The position numbers and the translations under genes were made by a program. From Eledone cirrhosa (taxonomy: Eukaryota), in contig OZ024741.1 of NCBI GenBank assembly GCA_964016885.1, positions 310,124,001 to 310,188,000 on the forward strand: a stretch of 64,000 nucleotides of DNA, given 5' to 3'. The notes under the pieces were generated by a model. The model did no database searches and was not told where the DNA came from. It worked only from the letters and a program-made list of their open reading frames with translations. Below are positions 20,323 through 62,023 of the stretch, piece by piece; positions within the stretch are counted from its first letter, which is position 1; every line of letters starts with the position of its first letter.

Positions 20323-21460
20323 CACAGGTTCTCAACCCATTTAGGCCAAAGCCCCCGACTGCAACTACAAATAAAAAAATTGTTAGTTTGCTTCATAACA
20401 ATAGCATATCCAAGTTTTTGAATAAATCGACTTATTTTAACTTTGACCTCATTTCAATGAGACGTTTGAGCTTCATGGAGTCTAGCTAACACTGACGTCG
20501 GGCTGAATTTTCTAAGATGAAGGATTTTTAATTATAATTACATTGTAGCAGTTGCGAGCCTTACTGTGCACTCTGGAAATAACGCCAAACCTCCTCTCGA
20601 CTAAGTATGAGCTTGGAAAAGGCAGAGCAAATTTCTTAGCCTCTGCATGTAGGAGTGGAAATCGATGCTGAAATTCCTCTTGCATCCAAAAAAAGGGTTC
20701 ACATATTTTGGAAAATCTAATTTTGATCATGTCAGCTGTTTGAAGTTCAATGAATTCTTCCTGAAATTTAACGTCCAAATCATTGACGTTAGCTATGAAG
20801 GGATCTGCTATCCACATTGGGATGTCCATCTGCAAAAGGTCAACAAACTGTTCTTCTCATGTTATCTTGTAGCGCATGGAGGTGAGCATTATAAATTTAG
20901 AGTTGAACATTGGCGACACTAGGAAAATTATAGAAGTCCCGTTGACAAAGATTCCTTTTGATGACATTCAATTTGGCCAGGAATGTTTTCACAGCATTCC
21001 TTGCTTTAAGCAAGGTGATCTTCTCTCCCTGCAAAGCCATAATGAGGCTATTGCATTTGTCAAAGATGTCGGCAAAGTAGGCACAGTCTTGCCTCACATC
21101 GAGGGTTTTCTTGTACAGTTCTGTGTTGCATCCTTGAAGAAACTCTGATAGAGTCGAACGGTTCAAAGAAGCAAGTAAGGCACTTGCGCTTTGAAAGCCA
21201 CCTCACTTCAGTATGAAGGAGCAACTCGAATTCTTCGTCAATATCTTGGCACAGTAGCCAGAAAATTCGTTCATTGAGGGCATCGCGTTTGATAAAATTA
21301 ATGACATCAATGGCCACCTGCAAGGACTTGTTCAGCTTCTTCGCAGTCAAGTGTTGTCGATGAATGACACAATGAACAGCAAATACAGATGGATTTCCTC
21401 TCTTCAGAAGTGAGACGAAACCCTTATGTTGGCCGACCATTGCTCTTGCGCCGTCCGTAG
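20323..21460 (-). mobile_element. hAT (Buster/Charlie/ZBED8-like) DNA transposon, 3' half, pseudogenised
   Basis: ORF pieces IATDGARAMVG, VHCVIHRQHL, LLHTEVRWLS, PFPSSYLVE and C-terminal HEAQTSH*; TIR-like cacaggttctcaacc at ~20323; 5' part lost at the junction with the Gypsy LTR. Confidence 0.88.
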
Positions 21461-22012
21461 CAATATTCAAGTTGAACATTGAATGATAAAATCTATAACA
21501 TGAAATATTCGTACAATGAGTTGGTGGCTCTACGATCCACGTAAATGCAAGTATCACAGAATACGATTATAATATAATTTGTATTGTATCTGAAAGATAC
21601 AATATGACAGACAGAATTGGTGCGTGTAAAATGCAAACAGTGTGAACTTACTATGTGTGTGTATTAGTATACTTTCTTGTCTTAGCAGTAGTAGGATTCA
21701 ATCAGCCAGGCGGGAATGGCGTGAGAAATTAGTGGGCAGACTGGTTTTTTCGTGGCGAGAGCGTGTAAATGAGACCTGTCTTGTCTGCAGTCTCACTTTT
21801 TCTGCCCGGCGCAAACAACCTTTGTATTTATAAGAGTTGCAGTTAGAAGGATAGATATATCATCTGACCTCTTTTCTGCCAGGCGTAAACAACCTCTGAC
21901 CTGTGTTTAGCATCTCCCAAGGGGTTGGTCTGCCGGGCGTAAACAACTAACCATGGCTTGTCCCAGAGGCTGGAAAGCTCAGATTCGGTTTCGAATCTTC
22001 GCCGCCGTTATA
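21461..22012 (-). repeat. 3' LTR of Gypsy A (truncated ~125 bp at its distal end)
   Basis: Aligns to 26548-27152, including the terminal agattcggtttcgaatcttcgccgccgt. Confidence 0.85.
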
Positions 22013-22336
22013 GTACCCTCTTCCAGTGAGAAAGCTAAAGATAAATTAAGATAGATATGACTAGAAAATCAAAAAAATAAAAATACATTAAAGTCATTTA
22101 CAAAATGGCTAAATGAAAGAAAACATGCAAAGCAAAACAAATTTACATGCAGGAAAATGTACTGTGATGTTACATAAAATTGAAAATGTTCATACGAAAA
22201 GTTCATTCATTTCATAGAAATGGAAAAATGTTCTTTTGTCTGTTCTTTTGATGTGTATGATGCACAGAGTCAATTAATTTGTGTGTAGCGATAGTTCATG
22301 ACCACAGAAATTGGCCGATTCGTTGAAATGTACAAA

Positions 22337-25300
22337 TTAGCCGAAATGTCGACCAGGTGCATAATTTGTACTTACCCGATAAACTTGTAAGTATCGCGTG
22401 GGCCATCGAACTGTTCTTCCAGATTTGGTGTGTCGGGGTTGTGCAGAATTTGTCGTGTTTGTGTCGGGCAAAGTTGGTGAGTTTGCTGGAGAAACGGTGG
22501 GTACTGGTGGTAAATCCTGTTCCATGAACACTTTTTTTAAACGGTCAATGGAGACAGTATATCGTTTCCCGTTCAAGTCGAGGACGAAATACTTAGGGCA
22601 TTTCTGTATCACCTTATAGGGCCCAGAATACGGTGGACGAAGTTCTGATAGAATACCGTCATTTCTAACGAAAACAAGCGTCTATGTATCAATGTCTTTT
22701 GGTATGTGCGAAGTAACGTGCTGTTGTTTAGGGGCTGAAGGAAACAGATGTGACATCGATGACCGTAAACGGTGCACATATTTTGTTGGGTCTGGAAATT
22801 CTTGTGGCGAAACAGGAGCGATCACTTGCCCGGGTAGAGCGAGTACGGTGCCATAAACTATTTCAGCCGGAGAATGTCCGACTCCCTCCTTATCAGTGGA
22901 ACAAATACCAAGAAGAATAAGTGGGAGGTATTCGAACCAGTTAGTAGAGTCTGCGTAAGCCTTGATGGCTGCTTTTAGCTGACGGTGGAAACGTTCTACC
23001 ATGCCGTTAGCTGCAGAGTGATACGCTGTTGTACGGATGTGTTTACACCCAAGGAGATGAGTCAGCTCGGTAAAGAGGTGCGAATCGAACTGACGTCCTC
23101 TATCCGTAGTGATGGTCGCGGGTGTGCTGCCGAAACGCGAAACCCAGTAAAACACTAGCGTTTTGGCGACAGTTTCCGCGGTAATATCCGTCAGGGGAAA
23201 AGCTTTTGGCCAGCGAGAAAATCTGTCAACACAGGTGAGAGGATGAATGTAGTTGTGAGAAGGAGGCAAAGGTCCAACGATGTCTATGTGCACATGTTGG
23301 AACCGTGCATCAGGTGTTGCGAAAGAACCGATCGGGGCTTTGATGTGCCGGTGAATTTTCGCCTTCTAGCACGCGATACAGTTCCTAGCCCATTCGCGGG
23401 TGTCCTTGTTGATGTTGGGCCACACAAAGCAAGCAACCATTAGTTTCTGCGTGGCACGGACGCCAGGATGTGCCAGAGAATGCAGTGCCGAAAAAGAGTT
23501 GTGTCGATGTTTCCGGGGCACGTATGGGCGCTCGTGGCCTGTGGAGATGTCGCACCAAATATAACCCGAAGAAGAGGGCAGCGAGCATTCCTGCAATTTC
23601 AAGGAGGATTTCCGTAGCTGTAGCAATTCCTCGTCATCCTGTTGATCCGCAGCAATCTTCTGGAGATCGATAGTGGCAGTGGTGTGGATTGCGTTAAGCT
23701 CCATGTGCGAGAGGGCATCAGCTGCTGAGTTGGTAGCACCCTTAATGTACCGAATGTCAGTAGTGTACTGAGAAATGAAGTCCAGATGTCGGACCTCCCT
23801 GGGTGAGTAGCGATCAGGCTTGGCGTTGAACGTGTACACTAGTGGTTTGTGGTCGGTGTATATGGAGAACATACGACCTTCTAGCATGTGTCGAAAATGC
23901 TTGACAGCAAGGTATGCTGCCAATAATTTACGACTGAATGTGCTGTACTTAGTTTCGGCGGGTTTTAATCGCTTAGAGAAAAAAGATACAGGGCACCAAA
24001 TATCGCCAGAGAGTTGTTGAAGCACACCCCAAACTCCGAAATCGGATGCATCAGTCAATAAACACATTGGGGCGTCAGGTTTGGGGTAACTTAGCATTGT
24101 AGCCTCGGACAACATTTTCTTCAACTCAGCGAAAGCGGTACATTCTTTTTCACTAAGATTGATGTTCGCGTTTTTGGTTGTATGCTGCCGCAGCAAATCT
24201 GTGAGCGGTTGGGCTGTCTCTGCACAGTGAGGGTATAAATCTTCTGTAGAAGTTCACCAGGCCAAGAAATTCTCTCAGTTTGCAGAGAGATGTGGGCTGT
24301 GGAAAATCAATGATGGATTTGACTTTCTCCTTAAGTGGGCGAATGCCATCTTCATCAATGATGTGTCCCAGAAAATGAAGGGACGCAACTTCGAACTCAC
24401 ACTTGCTGGGGTTGATAACAATTCCATATTCACGCAAACGTGCGAATAACAGGTGCAGGTACCTCTCATGTTCTTCATCGGAGCCGCTAACCACCAGTAA
24501 GTCGTCGATGTATGCGTATACAAAAGGTAGACCTCTGGTGACTGTATCGATGAATCGTTGGAATGTCTGCGCTGCATTACGCAACCCGACAGGCATACGC
24601 AGGAATGCGAACATTCCAAAGGGTGTTGTGACGGCGGTCTTCGGAATATCAACGGGCTCCACAGGTATCTGATTGAAAGCTCGCACAAGATCGATCTTCG
24701 AAAATATGTGAGCTCCGTGCAGTGAACTAGAGAAGTCCTGTAGATGAGGCACTGGATAAGGGTCAGGCACGGTGCAGTTTTTCAGTGCACGGTGGTCGCC
24801 ATAGATTCGCCAGTCGTTTGACGACTTCTTGGGTACACAATGTATGGGTGAGGACCAGTTGCTGCAGTATGATGCCGAGATCTAGTATGTGTTGAAATTC
24901 TTGTCTGACGGACTTCAGACGGTCTGATGGTAGCCTTCTTGGTCGTGCAGCGACAGGTGGGCCGTGTGTTTTTATGTGGTGGGTGACGTCATATCTTACA
25001 GGGCAGGCGTTGAATACTGGTCGAGCTACGTCTGGGTATTTGTTGATTATATAGCTGTGCCGGGTTGTTGTTGCCGATCGTGAAATAACTGGACTGACTG
25101 TGGCTGTCCGAGCGGCTATGCCGCGCACAGCGAGACCAGTGGAGTTGTCAACGAGTCATTGGTTTTTCAGGTCCACTAGCAGTGAGAAGTGCTGAAGAAA
25201 ATCAGCTCCTAAAATAGGAGTCGGTAGCTTAGCCACAATGAATACCCACTGGAAAGTGCGGCGTAGTCCTAAATTTAGTGTCAGGGACTGCTCTCCGTAG

Positions 25301-25650: not shown

Positions 25651-26370
25651 TCAACTGTTAGACCGACGCGTAGCAGGGTTACCCAGTGATAAGGCCTGAA
25701 TTTGTTGCGTCAAGGCCTGTATCTGTGTTGTTTGCTGTGCCAGTAACTGGTGTAGATCGGGCATCTCTGTGGAACTGGAGGGCTGAAGAAAAGGATTGGT
25801 GGGAGGCACGGCTGGCGTCACATTCGCTAAAGTTGAGTGCGGATGTGGTACCTCCATGATCTTATCTGCCAGCTCGGTGAGTTCTTCTATGGTGGTGGAC
25901 TCCCTGGTGGATGCTAGTACAACTTGTGTGGCAGAAGGCAATCGCTGGAGGAAGAGTTGCTTGAAAATTTCATCCGGGAGTTTATGTTCACCCAGAAGCT
26001 GCTTCATTCGCCGTAGGAGTTGCGTCGGCTTTTTATCTCCTAATTCCTCCGATATGAGGAACTGGTGTAAACGCTTCTGCTGCGACTTCGACGTCCGCTT
26101 AACTAATGTTCTTTTAAATGTGTCATATGACACAGAGCCGGGTGGTGCTAAAATGAGGTCTCGAACCTCATTTATAATCTCTGGAGGCATCGAACCGATG
26201 ACATGTGTGAGACGGGATGCCTCGCTAACGATCCGGTTCGATGCGAACTGCGCTTCGATGTGTGCGAACCACAGTGTTGGATCGTGCACCCAGAATGGTG
26301 GAATCCTTAATGTAAATGCCGCCCTGACTGCCATTTCTGCCGTAGATGAATCGTCGTGTGCTAGAGACAT
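25651..26370 (-). CDS. Gypsy A Gag (capsid region open; a premature TGA precedes the CHCC-like nucleocapsid segment)
   Basis: IPPFWVHDPTLWFAHIEAQF...EELGDKKPTQLLRRMKQL...LFLQRLP motifs; the same frame continues after the TGA into YWYHQKFGRRARKSSHPC. Confidence 0.85.
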   Translation of the reverse strand: MSLAHDDSSTAEMAVRAAFTLRIPPFWVHDPTLWFAHIEAQFASNRIVSEASRLTHVIGSMPPEIINEVRDLILAPPGSVSYDTFKRTLVKRTSKSQQKRLHQFLISEELGDKKPTQLLRRMKQLLGEHKLPDEIFKQLFLQRLPSATQVVLASTRESTTIEELTELADKIMEVPHPHSTLANVTPAVPPTNPFLQPSSSTEMPDLHQLLAQQTTQIQALTQQIQALSLGNPATRRSNS

Positions 26371-26384
26371 CGTTTGTAGTGGAT

Positions 26385-26421
26385 GATCAGAAGGTTGTGT
26401 GTCTGTTTTACGGGATCACCA
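26385..26421 (-). promoter_or_regulatory. Primer-binding site of Gypsy A, tRNA-Trp, bipartite/extended
   Basis: Plus strand cgggatcacca (26411-26421) matches the tRNA-Trp 3' end CGGGGTCACCA; gatcagaaggttgtgtgt (26385-26402) matches tRNA-Trp GATCAGAAGGTTGCGTGT. Confidence 0.85.
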
Positions 26422-26423
26422 GT

Positions 26424-27152
26424 TGTAACGGATTATTATGTGTGTTTGTAACGATAAGTGGATGGATGGATGTAACTGTTGGTATGGTGGTTTCGATGTA
26501 AAGAAAAATACCAGGTTTGTGTTGTTACAAAGTTTATTTTATTATAACAATATTCAATTTGAATATTGAATGATAAAATCAGTAACACAAAATATTCATA
26601 CAATAATTTGGTGGCTCTTCGAGCCACGTAAATTCAAGTATCACAGAATACGATTATAATATAATTTGTACTGTATCAGAAAGGTACAATATCTGTAAAC
26701 AGAAATGGTGCGTGTATAAATACTCAACTCAGTATGAATGCGTGTGTGCGTATGAGTATATTTACTTGTTTGTATTGCAGGAGTCAGCGATCAGCCAGGA
26801 AGGCAGACTGGTTTTTCGTGACGAGAGCTTGTAAATGCGACTTGTCTTGTCTGTATATCACTTCTTTTCTGTCGGGACGTGAACAACCCCTGTATTTATA
26901 AGAATTGAAGTTAGAAGGATAGATATATCCTCTGAACTTTGGTTAGTCTCTCCCAAGGGATTAGTTTGCCAAGCGTAAACAAGTCAGAAAGATGGATATA
27001 TCCTCTGACCTATTTTCTGTCAGGCGTAAACACCTCTGACCTGTGTTTAGCCTCTCCCAAGGGGTTAGTCTCTTGAGCGTAATCAAGTTACTACGGCTTG
27101 TCCCAGAGGCGGGAAAGTTCAGATTCGGTTTCGAATCTTCGCCGCCGTAATA
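26424..27152 (-). repeat. 5' LTR of Gypsy A
   Basis: Plus strand begins TGTAACGG 2 nt from the PBS and ends CCGTAATA; carries an internal tandem duplication (~26910-27085) absent from the 3' LTR. Confidence 0.88.
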
Positions 27153-38819: not shown

Positions 38820-41800
38820 AAATGACTTTTTTCGCTGGGTTAATGTCAGATTTAGGGTTAGTGTTAGGGTAAGTTTTACTGTTAATGGTAAGTTTATTGT
38901 TAGTGACTGTGTTACTGTTAGCATTACTGTCGCTGTTAGTTTTACTATAACTGTTACTCTTACAGTTACTGTTTGCGTTACTGTCTGCATCAGCGTTAGC
39001 ATTTGCATAAGCGTCTATGTAAGCTTTTGTGTTAGTGTCTATGAAGACTGGTGTTAGCATCTACGTTAGTGTTTGCGTAAGTCTCGGCATCTATGTCAGC
39101 ATTTGCGTCAGCGTCTGCATTGGTGATAGTGATTGTGTCATCATTTCCCTTAGCGTCTGAGTCAACATTAGTGTTAGCATTAGTGTTTGTTTCAGTGCCT
39201 GCGTCTACGTCAGTTTCTGAGTCAGCATTATCATTAGCGTCCGCGTCAGCACTTGTGTCAGTGTCAGCGTTTGCATCAGCGTGCACGTCAGCATTTGCAT
39301 TAGTGTTTGAGTCAGTGTTAGCGTCAGCGTTTGCATTTGTGTAGGGGTTAGCATTTGAGTCAGCATCTGCATCAGCATTCACATTAGCATTAGCGTTTGC
39401 GACAGCGTTTGTTTCCTTTAACGTCTTTGTCTGCATTTCCGTTAGCGTCTGTGTCAGCGTGTACGTTAGTTTCTACGTCAGCATTTCCGTTAGCATCTAT
39501 GTCAGTGTTTCCGTTAGCTCCTACGTCAGCGTTTCCGACCGCATCTGTGTCAGCGTCAGTATTTACATCTACATCAGCGTCAGCGTTTCAGTTAACGTCA
39601 GTGTTTACGTTAGCGTCTGTCAGCGTTTACGTTAGCTTCTACGTCAGCATTTCCGTAACGTCTACGTCAGCGTTTCGGTTAGCATTAGCGTTTCCATTAA
39701 CCTTTCCTGTGGCGTCCGCATCATTGCAGCGTCTGCATATCCCATGTAAGCGTTAACTTCAGCATTTGCGTCAGCGTTAGCCTTAGCCCTAGCGTCCGCA
39801 TCAGCATTTGCGTTAGCGTCAGCATACACGTCAGCGCCGGCAAAACTGCCTCAACATTTGCGTCAGCGTTAGCTTGGCTTTGGCTTCAGCAATCCGCATA
39901 AGGATAAACGCGGTAAGGATAAACGCTAACTTCTACGCCTGCTTCTACGTTAACAACTACGTCAGCGTTTTGTTAGCTTCTACGTCAGCGTTTACGTTAG
40001 CTTCTACGTCAGCATCTACGTTAGCTTCTACGTTAGCTTCTACGTCAGCGTCTACGTTAACATCTACGTCATCGTTTACGTTAGCTTCTATTAGCTTACA
40101 TTAGTGTCTGTGTCAGCGTTTGTATTAGCTTCTACGTCAGCGTCTGTGTCAGTGCCTGTATTTACATCTACATCAGCGTCAGCGTTTACATTTGCGTCTG
40201 TGTCAGCATTTACGTTAGCTTCTACGTCATCGTTTACATTAGCGGCTGCGTCATCATTTACGTTAGCGTCTGTGTCAACGTGTGTTAGCATCTGTGTCAG
40301 AGTTTATGTTAGCGTCTGCGTCAGTGTTTATATTAGCATCTGCGTCAGTGTTTATATTAGCATCTGCGTCAGTGTTTACGTTAGCATCTGTGTTAATGTG
40401 TGTTAGCGTCTGTGTCAGCATCTGCGTCAGCATTTTCATTAGTGTTTGCATCAGTGTTTCCTTTAGCTTCTACGTCAATGTTTACGTCTGCGTTAAGGTT
40501 GTAGCAGTTGCCTCCCTTGTTGTGACTCACAACCCCAATAGAATAACAACATCTAGACGGGAAGTAGAACCCTTTCTGTAACTTCCGGTCAGAACCCTAT
40601 AAAACTAATAACTTTAAGTTCTCACTCTCTCATTTGCCCTTCCGGCGCCTGGCCTTCGCCAGACGTCTTCTGCCAGCCTGCGTTTGCCTGGCAATCAAAA
40701 CGGTAACTACTAACTTTGCTTCATTCTTTCGTTTATTCATTGACATGTCAACTATACTGTTAAATTGTTGATTAAATATTATACACACAAACGATGTCTC
40801 CTTGCCACTTTCATACACTCAGTCAAAGAAATGAACACACCACGCACATGTGAAATTCGCGTTCAGACAGACTTTTTCTCTCACGCATCAACTAACTGTC
40901 GCATTTCACGATATATATATATATGTTTCTCGTTTCTTACAACGAACACTTTCAAAACAACAAAAAAAAGAAATTTGATATTTTTTTAAAAACATTTCAA
41001 CAGGAACATTTATTTTCGATGAACCATTGCCTTTTTTTTTTTTTTTTTTTTTTTCATCGTTTTCTTCATCGTTCAAGTTTTTTTATTCCAAAGTTCACAC
41101 CAATAATTATGCTAAGTGAAGCCTTTCTTTTTCATCATTGTCACTTTCACACTTGCACTATCATTTTCTCGCGCGGTAGAAATATTATTTTTTAAACCTA
41201 ACTTAACCTTGTATTGGCACGTGTAGGCAGCACATATTCTCGACTCACAGAGATAGCCGCACGCCAGAGATAACGTTTCTCGCCAAGGATTCTTCAGCCT
41301 TAAGCTATATTCTCCTATTTGCCGGTTTAAAAATTTACCACGTAAATTTGCCGTTGAAAACTGCGCATTTATTCAGAATGCTTATTTCTTTGGTCGCTGG
41401 CCTCTTGACCCTTCCAGGTCAACACATTCTCAACATCGACCATCAACTTCGGCTGTTATTTCTAGCACTTTGCGCAACTCATTTTTTCTGAAAAATTTCT
41501 TTTTACTGTGAATTTAAACACCGAATACGCTCACTCCGCGAGACAACAACATCAACGGCAACACAGCTTCACCAACAACCAAAACCAGCAGAACAAGCCA
41601 GAGAATTTATTTTTGCAGCACTCTTCCTGTGAGAAAATCCATTCGGAGGTTGGAAATTTCACGATATACCACAGAACAGAAACCACCTGCATTCATTCTC
41701 TGGAACACACTTTCTTTCCTGCTGTCATGTGATTGCACACCTGTGAACTATATTTTGTACATTTGAACTTTGAGCTCTTCTCTTACTTTATTACATTGTA

Positions 41801-57741: not shown

Positions 57742-59311
57742 TCATCCGCTTCTCGTGACTGGAGATGAAACAGGTGGCTCGCTGTGACAGCAATCTGTTG
57801 GAGTTTCTGGTGTAGAGACTGTAACAGTATCCATGATGGCTTTTTTTAATCTGTCCACGCTGACAGAATTCTGTTTACCATCTAGATAGAGAATAAAATA
57901 TTTCGGATATTTTTTTAGAACACGATAAGGGCCAGAATATGTAGGTCGAAGATGAGCTGAGATGGTGACGTTTCGAACGAAAACGTGTGTCCAATCTTTA
58001 ATGTCTGAAGGTACGTGTGTGGCCGTGTTCTGTTGACGGGTGCTTGCAGGAGCAAGGTGAGACATATATTGTCGAAGACGGTGTACGTATGATCCTGGGT
58101 CTGGAACATCCTGAGGAGAGATGGGAGCCACCATCTGACCAGATAGAACCAGGGTGGTGCCGTACACTAATTCTGCAGATGTGTGTCCGAAATCCTCCTG
58201 AACGGTGGATCGAATGCCCAGAAGGATGAGTGGTAGGTATTCAAACCAGTGGGTCTTGTCTGGATATGCTTTTATTGCAGCTTTCAATTGGCGATGGAAT
58301 CTTTCCACGAGACCATTAGCTTGCGGGTGATAAGCTGTCGTGCGGATGTGTTTACATCCTAACAGGCGAGTCAGTTCCCTGAAGAGGTGGGAGTCAAATT
58401 GGCGTCCTCTGTCCGTTGTTATCTTCGCTGGGGCGCCATAACGTGATACCCAGTGTAAAACCAAAGTTTTAGCGACTGTTTCCGCTGAGGTATCATTTAT
58501 GGGAAAAGCCTCAGGCCAACTGGAAAAATCGATCTATGCAGGTGAGCAAGTGTGTGTAGTTCTGTGATGGTGGTAGCGGTCCGACGATGTCGATATGCAC
58601 ATGATGAAAACGTGCATCAGGTTGCGCGAATGTGCCGAGTGGAGTTTTGATGTGTCTGTGGACTTTGGCTTTCTGGCAGGCAATGCAGCTCCTGGACCAG
58701 TCGCGCACGTCCTTGTTAATGCTAGTCCACACAAAACGAGCAGAGATGAGTTTCTGTGTAGCCCGGATTCCCGGGTGAGACAAGCAGTGTAAAGCAGAAA
58801 AAACTTGTCGACGATGCATCTGTGGTACGTACGGTCGTTCATGACCGGTAGAAAGGTCGCACCAAATTTGTCCCGGAGAAGAAGGAATGGGAACTTGCTG
58901 AAACTTGAGGGATGGCGAATCTCGGAGCTTGATAAACTCTTCGTCAGTCTCTTGGTCAGCTGCGATCTGTTGAAGGTCGATGCCTGAATGCACATGTATT
59001 GCGTTCAGCTGGATTCGGGACAGGGCGTCGGCTGCTACATTGTCTGATCCCTTGATATGCCGAATATCAGTTGAATATTGGGAGACAAAATCCAGGTGTC
59101 GGAGTTCTCTCGGTGAATGTCAATCAGGTTTGGTACGGAACGCATAAATTAATGGTTTATGGTCCGTGTAGATCACGAAATCTGATCCTTCGAGCATGTG
59201 CCGAAAATGCTTAACCGAAAGATAGGTTGCCAAGAGTTCGCGGCCAAAGGTATTGTATTTCGTTTCTGCCGGTTGCAACCGCTTAGAAAAGAAGGATAAG
59301 GGTTGCCACAC
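57742..59311 (-). pseudogene. Gypsy B RNase H + integrase (broken by a few frameshifts and a stop)
   Basis: FGRELLA, YTDHKPL, HPG...[31 protein letters not shown] motifs across ORFs 59120-59311, 58511-58993 and 57742-58464. Confidence 0.9.
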
Positions 59312-61086
59312 GCCGTCGACATGTTGTTGTAGAACGCCTCCAACCCCGTGTCTGATGCGTCCACTAGCAGCGAAAGAGGAGCGCCAGACCTGGGGAAAAC
59401 GAGCATGGAAGCGTTTACCAACATTTCCTTCAGGCGGTTAAAAGATATTAATTCTTCGTCGTTCAGAGTGATCTCTTCGTTTTTGCGAGTCCGGTTACGA
59501 AGAAGGTCCGTGAGGAGTCTGGCTGCGTCGGAACAATGAGGGATAAAACGCCTATAAAAATTCACCAGACCGAGGAATTCACGCAGTTTCCGAAGTGATG
59601 TAGGTGCGGGAAAACTGCGGATAGCTTCTACTTTCTCGGGAAGTGGACGAATGCCGTCTTTATCGATGATATGCCCGAGAAAGGACAGTGAAGGAACGCC
59701 GAGAAGGCACTTGCTGGGGTTGATGATGATACCGTACTTAGCCAAACGTCGGAAAAGGATATCTAAGTGCTTCTCGTATTCATGCTCGGAAGTACTTGCT
59801 ACCAGCACGTCGTCAATATACGCGTATACGAAGGGTAGATCGCGTAACACGGTGTCAATAAACCGCTGAAAAGTTTGTGCAGCGTTGCGCAGACCGAACG
59901 GCATTCGCAGGAATTCGAATAAACCGAACGGTGTTGTGATTGCGGTCTTCGGAATGTCTGCAGGCTCCATAGGTATCTGGTTATATGCACGCACCAAATC
60001 TACCTTGGAAAAGATGCGTGCGCCTTGCAGAGAATCAGAAAAATCGTGCAGGTGAGGTACAGGGTAATTATCGGGCACTGTAGAATTGTTATGTGTACGA
60101 TAATCCCCACATGGTCGCCAATCATTCTCGTTTTTTTTAGGAACAAGGTGTAGGGGTGCAGACCAGTTGCTGGAGGAAGGGCGAATGATTCCGAGGTCCA
60201 GCATGTGTTGGAACTCATGCTTGGCGATTCTCAATCGGTCTGGAGGCAGTCTCCTTGGTCGGGCAGCTGTGGGTGGTCCCCTTGTCTCGATGTGGTGCGT
60301 GACACTATGCTTAATGGGACCATCCTTAAATACCGGGCGAGTGATGTCTGGGTATTTCTGGAGAATGCCGTTGTACCGCGAAGGTTCTGACTGGCAAATT
60401 ACAGGGCTCACTGGGGATTGCGTGGTAAATATACCTCTCACAGTGAGGTTTGTGGTGGTGTCGATAAGCCTCCGGTTCTTCATATCCACCAGAAGGTTGA
60501 AGTGGTGGAGAAAATCGGCTCCTAGGATAGGGGTCGGCAGGTCTGCCACGACGAACACCCATTGAAAACGCCGCCTCAGGCTTAAATTGAGGGTCAGGGA
60601 TTTCCCCCCGAAAGTGGGAATTGACGATCGGTTCACTGCCTGCAGAAAGGACGGGGTTGGGTGTCTTTTTCCCGAGATTAGTGAAACAGGAATAACACTA
60701 ACCTGGGCTCCTGTATCCACGAGGTAACGGATGCCTGTCGCCTGGTCGTTAATAAAAAATAGACGACTTTTCTTTTCAGTACCAGGGGTGAACGTCGTCG
60801 CCAGGCCCTGGGTGGCATTCCGGAAAGAGCACGGGGCCTTGCACTTAGATGCCTGTGCGCCGAAATTTGTTTGATACCAGCAGATGTTGCCAGGCACACG
60901 ATTTTGACTGGGACTACTGGATCTTCGACTGTGAAAAGGCCTGGATCGACTGTTGCTGCGTCGCCGGTGTGTTTGAAAGGTCAAGTTCTCTACTTGATTC
61001 GGGAGGGCTTTAATTTGACCAACCCGCTCTCTGATCATAGCCCGCAGCTCTGAAATCACGGCCGCTGTCGTTTGTGACATGTCCAT
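59173..61086 (-). CDS. Gypsy B fused truncated-Gag(NC)-protease-RT ORF, 637 aa
   Basis: [18 protein letters not shown] (CHCC-like, H->Q), [31 protein letters not shown]; shifts out of frame after VDASDTG at the start of RNase H. Confidence 0.9.
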
Positions 61087-61111
61087 GTTGATATTTTCTT
61101 AGGTGCTGTCT

Positions 61112-61143
61112 GGTTGCGCGTTCGAGTCACGTTCGGGTCACCA
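61112..61143 (-). promoter_or_regulatory. Primer-binding site of Gypsy B, extended 32-nt tRNA-Trp match
   Basis: Plus strand ggttgcgcgttcgagtcacgttcgggtcacca versus recalled metazoan tRNA-Trp GGTTGCGTGTTCAAATCACGTCGGGGTCACCA; 2 nt from the LTR. Confidence 0.9.
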
Positions 61144-62023
61144 ATTGTAGCGACGTGGTTAGTCAGTCTAGTCACTACTTCTGATCAGATCCGAGATTAG
61201 CCCTTAGAAGGACTTTTATCGCATACGGTCTGATCAGATATGAAGATAGCCCTTAAAAGGACTGTTGTCGCATATAACCCTTAAAAGAAATGTTAAGGAT
61301 GGACAGACGAAAGCACAAGTTGAAAGGACGAAGCAAGGCGAGATGTAAATTCGATCAGCTATTTATTTTTACATGAAGCGACGATACGAGGTACAAGGCG
61401 TGTGTGAGTGACAAAGCGTGGCAGAGTAAAGGAACAACGATGCGCTAGCTGACTCTGCCAAAAGTCGACTGGTGAAGTGTTTGGAACCACTCTATTTATA
61501 CAGAAATAATCGTTTGGTGTTTAGCCGATGTGTAGGCGTTTATTCTGGTAGGTTTTAAGGATTCTTTTGTTTCACGTTGAGGTAGTTAGCTAACAGGTAG
61601 ATGGCGCTGTATATTTCACAGATGTTATTTCCGGTGGCTGTACATATATATATATGATAGAAAGAAGAGAAAAAAACGAGACCCTTAGAAACGAATAAGA
61701 GTCATCAAAGCGATCATATGCATTGCTTTAAACTGTAATGCGAAGGGATACACTAGTATTTGAGGTATAATCATTTAGGATTTTAACCCTCGGACTTTTC
61801 ACTCCCGGTTTTGAAATTTAGGGGTGACTGGGAATATTACATAATGTAGGGATTTTTTTTTCCTTTTCTATCATTTCTTATTTATGTATTTATATATTTA
61901 TTTATCTACTCTCGTGATTGATATTCCAACAAATGTTAGGGGTGTATTTTGGTTTTTTATTATGTCAGGTATAGCATCCAAAAATTTCTCCCTTCCTCCA
62001 ATATATATATATATATATACAAA

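Follow-up and report, generated by a model that had tools for sequence, protein, structure and literature searches.

The methylated adenine at tRNA position 58 (m1A58) normally stops the copying of a tRNA primer at 18 bases, and this 18-nt limit is treated as a rule of LTR element replication. In HIV-1, according to the portions of two reports used here (PMC13191261, PMC8599865), the plus strand stops mainly before m1A58, with minor products running to positions 55, 54 or 37; only products up to 54 are transferred, aided by a primer over-extension sequence, which in lentiviruses reaches psi55. The lentiviral and spumaviral over-extension sequence is credited to Muthuswami et al. (2002), as cited in the same portion of PMC13191261. 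Among retrotransposons, the CsRn1 clade of Ty3/Gypsy elements (CsRn1, PwRn1, AgCR) has a tRNA-Trp primer-binding site (PBS) among its clade features, in the text of PMC2582038 that we compared.

We analyzed a window of 64,000 nt from the Eledone cirrhosa genome (contig OZ024741.1, positions 310,124,001 to 310,188,000), which contains a decayed CsRn1-type Gypsy element (family A) on the minus strand and a second Gypsy element (family C), spanning about 57742-61600. Their features are as follows.

26424..27152, minus strand: 5′ LTR of the decayed CsRn1-type Gypsy element (family A), with its CA end at 26425-26424, 2 nt before the PBS
26411..26421, minus strand: PBS, complement of tRNA-Trp(CCA) 76-66 (10/11 against host genes plus CCA)
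26403..26410, minus strand: 8-nt spacer, read as decayed tRNA 65-55 that has lost 3 nt and, in the tRNA sense, has T in place of A58 (by comparison with L134, L078, and L093)
26385..26402, minus strand: second block, complement of tRNA-Trp 54-37 (17/18, T47 isodecoder; shuffle P = 2e-4)
25651..26334, minus strand: gag (DUF7041), with an early stop in the window copy (PF23055, E = 4e-26)
22682..24881, minus strand: broken pol fragments, with RT first, then RNase H, then integrase (RVT_1, RT_RNaseH, Integrase_H2C2, rve; three separate frames)
22016..22024, minus strand: polypurine tract ahead of the 3′ LTR (read from the sequence)
21458..22012, minus strand: 3′ LTR, which ends short at 21458 (LTR alignment)
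61112..61143, minus strand: long PBS of family C, a contiguous complement of tRNA-Trp 76-45 with 4 mismatches (shuffle P = 4e-4)

The family A copy in the window is old, since its two LTRs are alike at only 456 of 524 letters (87%; 27152-26545 aligned to the 3′ LTR). Two traits of the CsRn1 clade are present, the tRNA-Trp PBS and, between the LTRs, the Gypsy order RT-RNase H-integrase; the CHCC signature in Gag is partly recognizable by eye, behind the early stop of this decayed copy. The nearest named relatives of the Gag are Octopus proteins (about 70%), and we infer that the DUF7041 Gag belongs with the CsRn1 clade. Elsewhere in the window, a long run of 6- and 12-nt repeats (38900-40000) might, on the minus strand, code for a protein segment of low complexity.

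The initial annotation had described a PBS matching tRNA-Trp at 10 of 11 positions and, behind an 8-nt spacer, an 18-nt block matching positions 54-37 at 17 of 18. The genome contains host tRNA-Trp(CCA) genes (77 near-full copies; e.g., L031 and L033); they match both blocks, and both figures were confirmed against them, the second for the isodecoder with T47. This isodecoder is minor in the host (position 47 is C in 70 genes, T in 6, and A in 1), and against the major C47 isodecoder the block matches at 16 of 18 positions. Position 57 is A in 52 genes, G in 24, and T in 1; A58 and G37 are each present in 75 of the 77, and CCA is encoded in none. The odd base in the window PBS could form a G-U pair, and most family copies match at 11 of 11. 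When the downstream leader was shuffled 5000 times, the block score was never reached (P = 2e-4, the floor of this test). The spacer is not foreign sequence: it can be aligned to tRNA 55-65, from which it differs by several substitutions and the loss of 3 nt, and intermediates (L078, L079, and L093) retain all 11 spacer positions. The “bipartite” site would therefore be a worn 40-nt tRNA copy; judged by its sequence, the array of PBS, spacer, and block is better read as a single decayed copy of positions 76-37 than as two sites.

Two arrays, one of about 100 kb and one of about 40 kb, contain most host tRNA-Trp genes (L197-L210, C4). One clustered gene copy without CCA (L209:4790-4865) has changes at positions 32, 37, 49, and 58, like the reverse-transcribed copies described below. 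Dispersed, near-identical tRNA-like sequences with varying anticodons (L053, L055-L063) are likely a tRNA-derived SINE family.

Family A was searched with leader and LTR anchors that take no account of the intervening segment (95 matches, 3 of them unrelated). The block seen in the window copy recurs in recognizable form in all 92 copies, and five of the 92 contain an unbroken tRNA copy from position 76 to 37/38. A 1-nt gap in the block is found in 29 copies, and six of the seven tested share flanks, as duplicates of one insertion; since the gap-bearing copies are mostly duplicates, there are about 60-66 independent family A insertions. A tree was built from leader and gag DNA with the tRNA-like part left out, using 59 of 67 rows (the eight dropped had fewer than 300 aligned letters, the full copy L084 among them). 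The six full-copy rows on the tree need six changes, a single clade is rejected (p-AU 3.8e-8), and every full copy is nearer to some spacer-bearing copy than to another full copy. For example, L134 shares 98.7% (LTR side) and 97.8% (gag side) identity with spacer-bearing copies, and only 91.5% and 92.6%, respectively, with the nearest full copy. Because the full copies are scattered among spacer-bearing ones, the segment appears to have been re-copied repeatedly, and its renewal from the tRNA itself, several times over, is strongly supported. L089, L133, and L134 carry C47 and A58, which are absent from the decayed form and present in most host genes. L070, L084, and L137 retain their subfamily's A at position 37, so the renewed tract there would have stopped before 37. 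T58 in L070, L084, and L091 is common to the decayed spacer, and G57 is present in all seven family A full copies, so that some of them may carry an old allele rather than a fresh renewal.

One internally deleted family A insertion has been amplified together with its flank (L340-L345; contigs C16, C19, C20, C23, and C27). C20 has 14 listed copies of it at distances of about 100-350 kb, which suggests that a tandem or segmental repeat of very large size is present. L155 consists of tandem repeats of about 49 nt, each with an LTR end, PBS, and second block. Assembled contigs of four runs show block-bearing variants, also under a second organism code; they may include the window's own sample and are uninformative on expression.

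Near-exact tRNA copies were sampled across the genome as all 40 places with exact tRNA spacing over positions 46-66 and a CCA end; with five partial or degenerate ones left out, 35 remained, all bearing the CCA that no host gene encodes. Position 58 is altered in 13 of the 35 (seven T, four C, and two G), against 2 of the 77 genes (P = 3e-6), and in 10 of the 29 copies outside family A; it shows 11 transversions in 35 copies, against 4 in 630 readings of other sites (P = 2e-12). Methylated A58 is misread by reverse transcription in just such a way, and the altered position 58 is likely the expected trace of read-through at m1A58. The change of G49 to A is also raised (7 of 35 copies), without an explanation. 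From general tRNA knowledge, we take the host tRNA-Trp to be modified at 58, 37, and 26, with m1G37 and m2,2G26.

The initial annotation had the match end exactly at G37 and proposed this base as a second roadblock to RT. The leader in the window does end at G37 (an older subfamily ends at A38), whereas most fresh tRNA copies continue past 37. The roadblock idea is upheld only in part: among the 18 copies that match positions 41-38, 17 also match position 36, and G37 is altered (to C or T) in 6 of the 18, compared with 2 of the 77 genes. G37 thus seems to be no hard stop, and its alteration looks like misreading rather than stopping. In eleven of the 18, the tRNA copy ends at 35-37 (in ten cases at 35 or 36); six others continue to 27-29, and one comprises the whole tRNA; the observed ends adjoin positions 34 and 26 and the tRNA 5′ end. 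Two copies, L130 and L156, span the whole tRNA and have G26 altered; L130 is also changed at position 58 and shows a gap of 2 nt near positions 8-9. Intact tRNA must prime at least sometimes, since some copies reach 27-29 or the whole tRNA. In L090, five bases are skipped across position 37.

Many of the 29 copies outside family A consist of an LTR, a tRNA copy, and unrelated, repeated, or folded-back DNA. For example, L068, L082, and L085 each contain the whole LTR of a family with a degenerate leader; a near-exact tRNA copy follows, and the sequence behind it differs from that leader. The DNA past the tRNA copy folds back or repeats the LTR end in L072, L094, L073, L080, L082, and L092, as expected of self-priming or template jumps before joining to the chromosome. 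In several families (L147-L152, L072, L075, L130, and others), what appears to be the inner end of the 5′ LTR reads AA in place of CA; these AA-ended families supply many of the LTR-tRNA junction pieces. G57 occurs in 24 of 37 LTR-attached copies and in 24 of the 77 genes, which hints at uneven isodecoder use.

Long blocks are not confined to family A. When copies were selected by Gag only (70 of the 150 PF23055 places listed were examined, 62 of them with a PBS), all five Gag-anchored families proved to extend past position 58 and to carry long blocks. Family A reaches 37/38 (24 of 24 copies in the main leader group), family C reaches 45 (30 of 31 copies), and three small families reach 42, 39, and 37-38; two single rearranged copies score low for the long block. 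Three of the five families keep the block with a spacer 3-5 nt shorter, and further families found by pattern keep it with unlike spacers, the pattern itself having demanded positions 42-46. Family C retains T47, although 70 of the 77 host genes have C47. From other hosts, we obtained 80 metagenome loci, 73 of them with a tRNA-Trp PBS, falling into 26 leader groups; a clear long block is present in one of the 26 (L274, P = 0.001), and one more is marginal. With five of five families here and one of 26 groups elsewhere, the trait is concentrated in this lineage.

A short in-register extension to positions 57-53 in other animals (55 of 130) stands out against a flat 27% but is weak when compared with shifted registers (mean 39.9, sd 7.0, maximum 56), and we do not claim it. 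A candidate third block, complementary to tRNA 27-36 and located where gag begins, was rejected, since it reached P = 0.03 in a single copy and gave no signal in another 10. As controls from other LTR lineages, PF03564 and PF19259 had no match in the genome, nor PF19259 in the control genomes; a generic pattern running from T-loop through CCA to LTR gave 3 matches in the genome and 2 in its control; and no relatives were found in the viral contigs searched.

Our preferred reading, which we consider rather probable, is that the site is one decayed copy of tRNA positions 76-37, renewed through read-through of m1A58, and that the block likely serves as a landing site for over-long DNA. We are considerably more confident of the origin of the segment by read-through, which is very probable; capture of tRNA sequence in this way, one of the initial annotation's suggestions, is strongly supported, and as a recurrent process rather than a one-off event. 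Priming by tRNA-Trp at the 11-nt PBS is established for the clade. To judge from the genomic products, plus-strand synthesis would enter the attached primer, in some rounds pass position 58, often with misreading, and end mostly at 35-38. The 3′ end of this strong-stop DNA may then pair with the minus-strand copy of the block, and transfer could be completed despite the mismatched spacer. At times the heteroduplex would be resolved to the tRNA version, yielding the full copies seen in about 5 of the 60-66 independent insertions. Products without a partner, extending to 27-29 or over the whole tRNA, would give the observed LTR-tRNA pieces joined to unrelated DNA. Selection would retain the block for its landing job. 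The genomic products of family A fit plus-strand transfer of over-extended DNA, and by analogy the block most likely corresponds to the primer over-extension sequence of lentiviruses, in a far longer form. Against a landing site, most junction copies end at 35-36, 1-2 bases beyond the block, so the 3′ ends would need trimming or mismatch extension; in addition, about nine in ten family A copies carry no inherited tRNA, so most rounds would use another route, as Ty1 and Ty3 do (the portions of PMC5371799 used here), with less need for a landing site. Also against this reading, family C ends at 45 and others at 41-42, and 25 of the 26 leader groups from other animals show no clear long block.

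Given the same read-through origin, the block might instead owe its retention to annealing at initiation, when it would pair with the primer's variable loop, T-stem, and anticodon-stem strands, as the extended PBS of Ty1 does; inheritance would then be a side effect. We consider this unlikely but a real rival, and such extra annealing would be compatible with a landing site rather than exclusive of it. The predicted duplex has -48 to -50 kcal/mol with the block and -22 with the PBS alone (about 26 added), and the lowest-energy structure predicted in a context of 160 nt is the bipartite one, but any complementary stretch yields such energy, and the prediction ignores modified bases. Annealing is also favored by the shorter spacers of the three Gag-anchored families that keep the block, by the persistence of the spacer-bearing form across subfamilies, with full copies single and at the tips, and by a precedent in Ty1 (the part of PMC3592414 used here); it leaves unexplained why the block ends within 1-2 nt of the ends of fresh copies. 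The selected second annealing site of the initial annotation thus gains from the predicted energies, but not from conservation within the family, which does not show selection: among 17 Gag-anchored family A copies, the block has 0.033 changes per site and the neighboring leader 0.036. This equal divergence would also suit a neutral relic without function, left in the source lineage by its most recent re-copying, as would the mere 5-6 or so changes that separate spacer from tRNA and the lack of a block in most relatives from other animals. Inserted copies evolve neutrally anyway, however, so that equal divergence is uninformative, and in several families whose leaders are dissimilar, 55-65 has changed while 54-38 is spared (many of these families were found by the pattern demanding 42-46); we regard a relic as distinctly improbable.

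More doubtful still is priming by a 3′ tRNA half that arises by a cut in the anticodon loop, or a role of the site as a target or sponge of these halves, with 35-36 as the half's 5′ end. The cluster of junction ends at 35-37, ten of the eleven at 35 or 36, fits anticodon-loop cleavage. Nearly the same ends are predicted by a stop before 2′-O-methylated C34, a modification reported for tRNA-Trp(CCA) of yeast and human in the part of PMC10275265 used here; and 7 of the 18 copies, as well as L156, run to 27-29 or the tRNA 5′ end, which requires intact tRNA and disagrees with the earlier suggestion of priming by 3′ halves alone. Gene conversion by genomic tRNA-Trp genes, or recombination between elements, is scarcely credible as the source of the full copies: about 100 anticodon-arm matches are available as donors, and three family A copies could have a common old allele, but the genes' lack of CCA and their nearly constant A58 (75 of 77) largely refute conversion already, and neither route explains the excess of changes at 58 and 37 or the LTR-tRNA junction pieces.

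If our preferred reading of read-through and a landing site is correct, its bearing goes beyond this element. Against the 18-nt rule, the genome shows primer copies of at least 40 nt, both inherited in elements and frozen at dead-end insertions, and the changes in them fall at positions that are usually methylated. Such copies offer an in vivo test bed for the handling of tRNA modifications by RT; they are likely a genomic record of these modifications, so that DNA assemblies could yield both tRNA modification and primer choice, and they are a plausible source of CCA-bearing tRNA-like sequence in genomes. PBS tools limited to 18 nt overlook half of the site. More tentatively, it could well be that these cephalopod Gypsy elements have evolved a 40-nt over-extension site, that plus-strand stops in the anticodon loop are productive, that RT reads m1A58, m1G37, and m2,2G26, and that LTR-attached tRNA copies are a datable record of germ-line modification and isodecoder use, minable in any animal assembly.

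The arrangement is a variation on known primer over-extension and extended PBSs; the 40-nt inherited primer copy itself is apparently undescribed for Gypsy elements in the literature searched, which lay outside subscription journals, Repbase notes, and image supplements. Two reports, in the parts compared, describe tRNA-like sequence in LTR elements: in Helenus TRIMs it is promoter-like, lies inside the LTR, and is unrelated to priming (PMC10886601), and in Culex cqgypsy_1 it is one insertion of two head-to-head tRNAs (PMC3286476); unlike the segment in family A, neither is a recurrent primer copy. The CsRn1 clade and the element described here are alike in tRNA-Trp PBS and Gypsy domain order. 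In the text of PMC2582038 that was compared, its PBS alignment aside, only a tRNA-Trp PBS is given, whereas complementarity here extends over 32-40 nt. Ty1 and Ty3 likewise combine a short PBS with further primer-complementary boxes (bipartite or extended PBS), but according to the portions of PMC5371799 and PMC3592414 used here, their primer sequence is not inherited, while it is inherited here in a minority of insertions; also, unlike these boxes, the extra block copies the tRNA colinearly. The lentiviral and spumaviral over-extension sequence shares with our families a complement of the primer that lies right behind the PBS and passes position 58. In HIV-1, it reaches only 55/54, and the product stopped at 37 is unusable, whereas the families here reach 37/38 (A) and 45 (C); moreover, the host of the sequence here is a retrotransposon, and the inherited products are visible in the genome.
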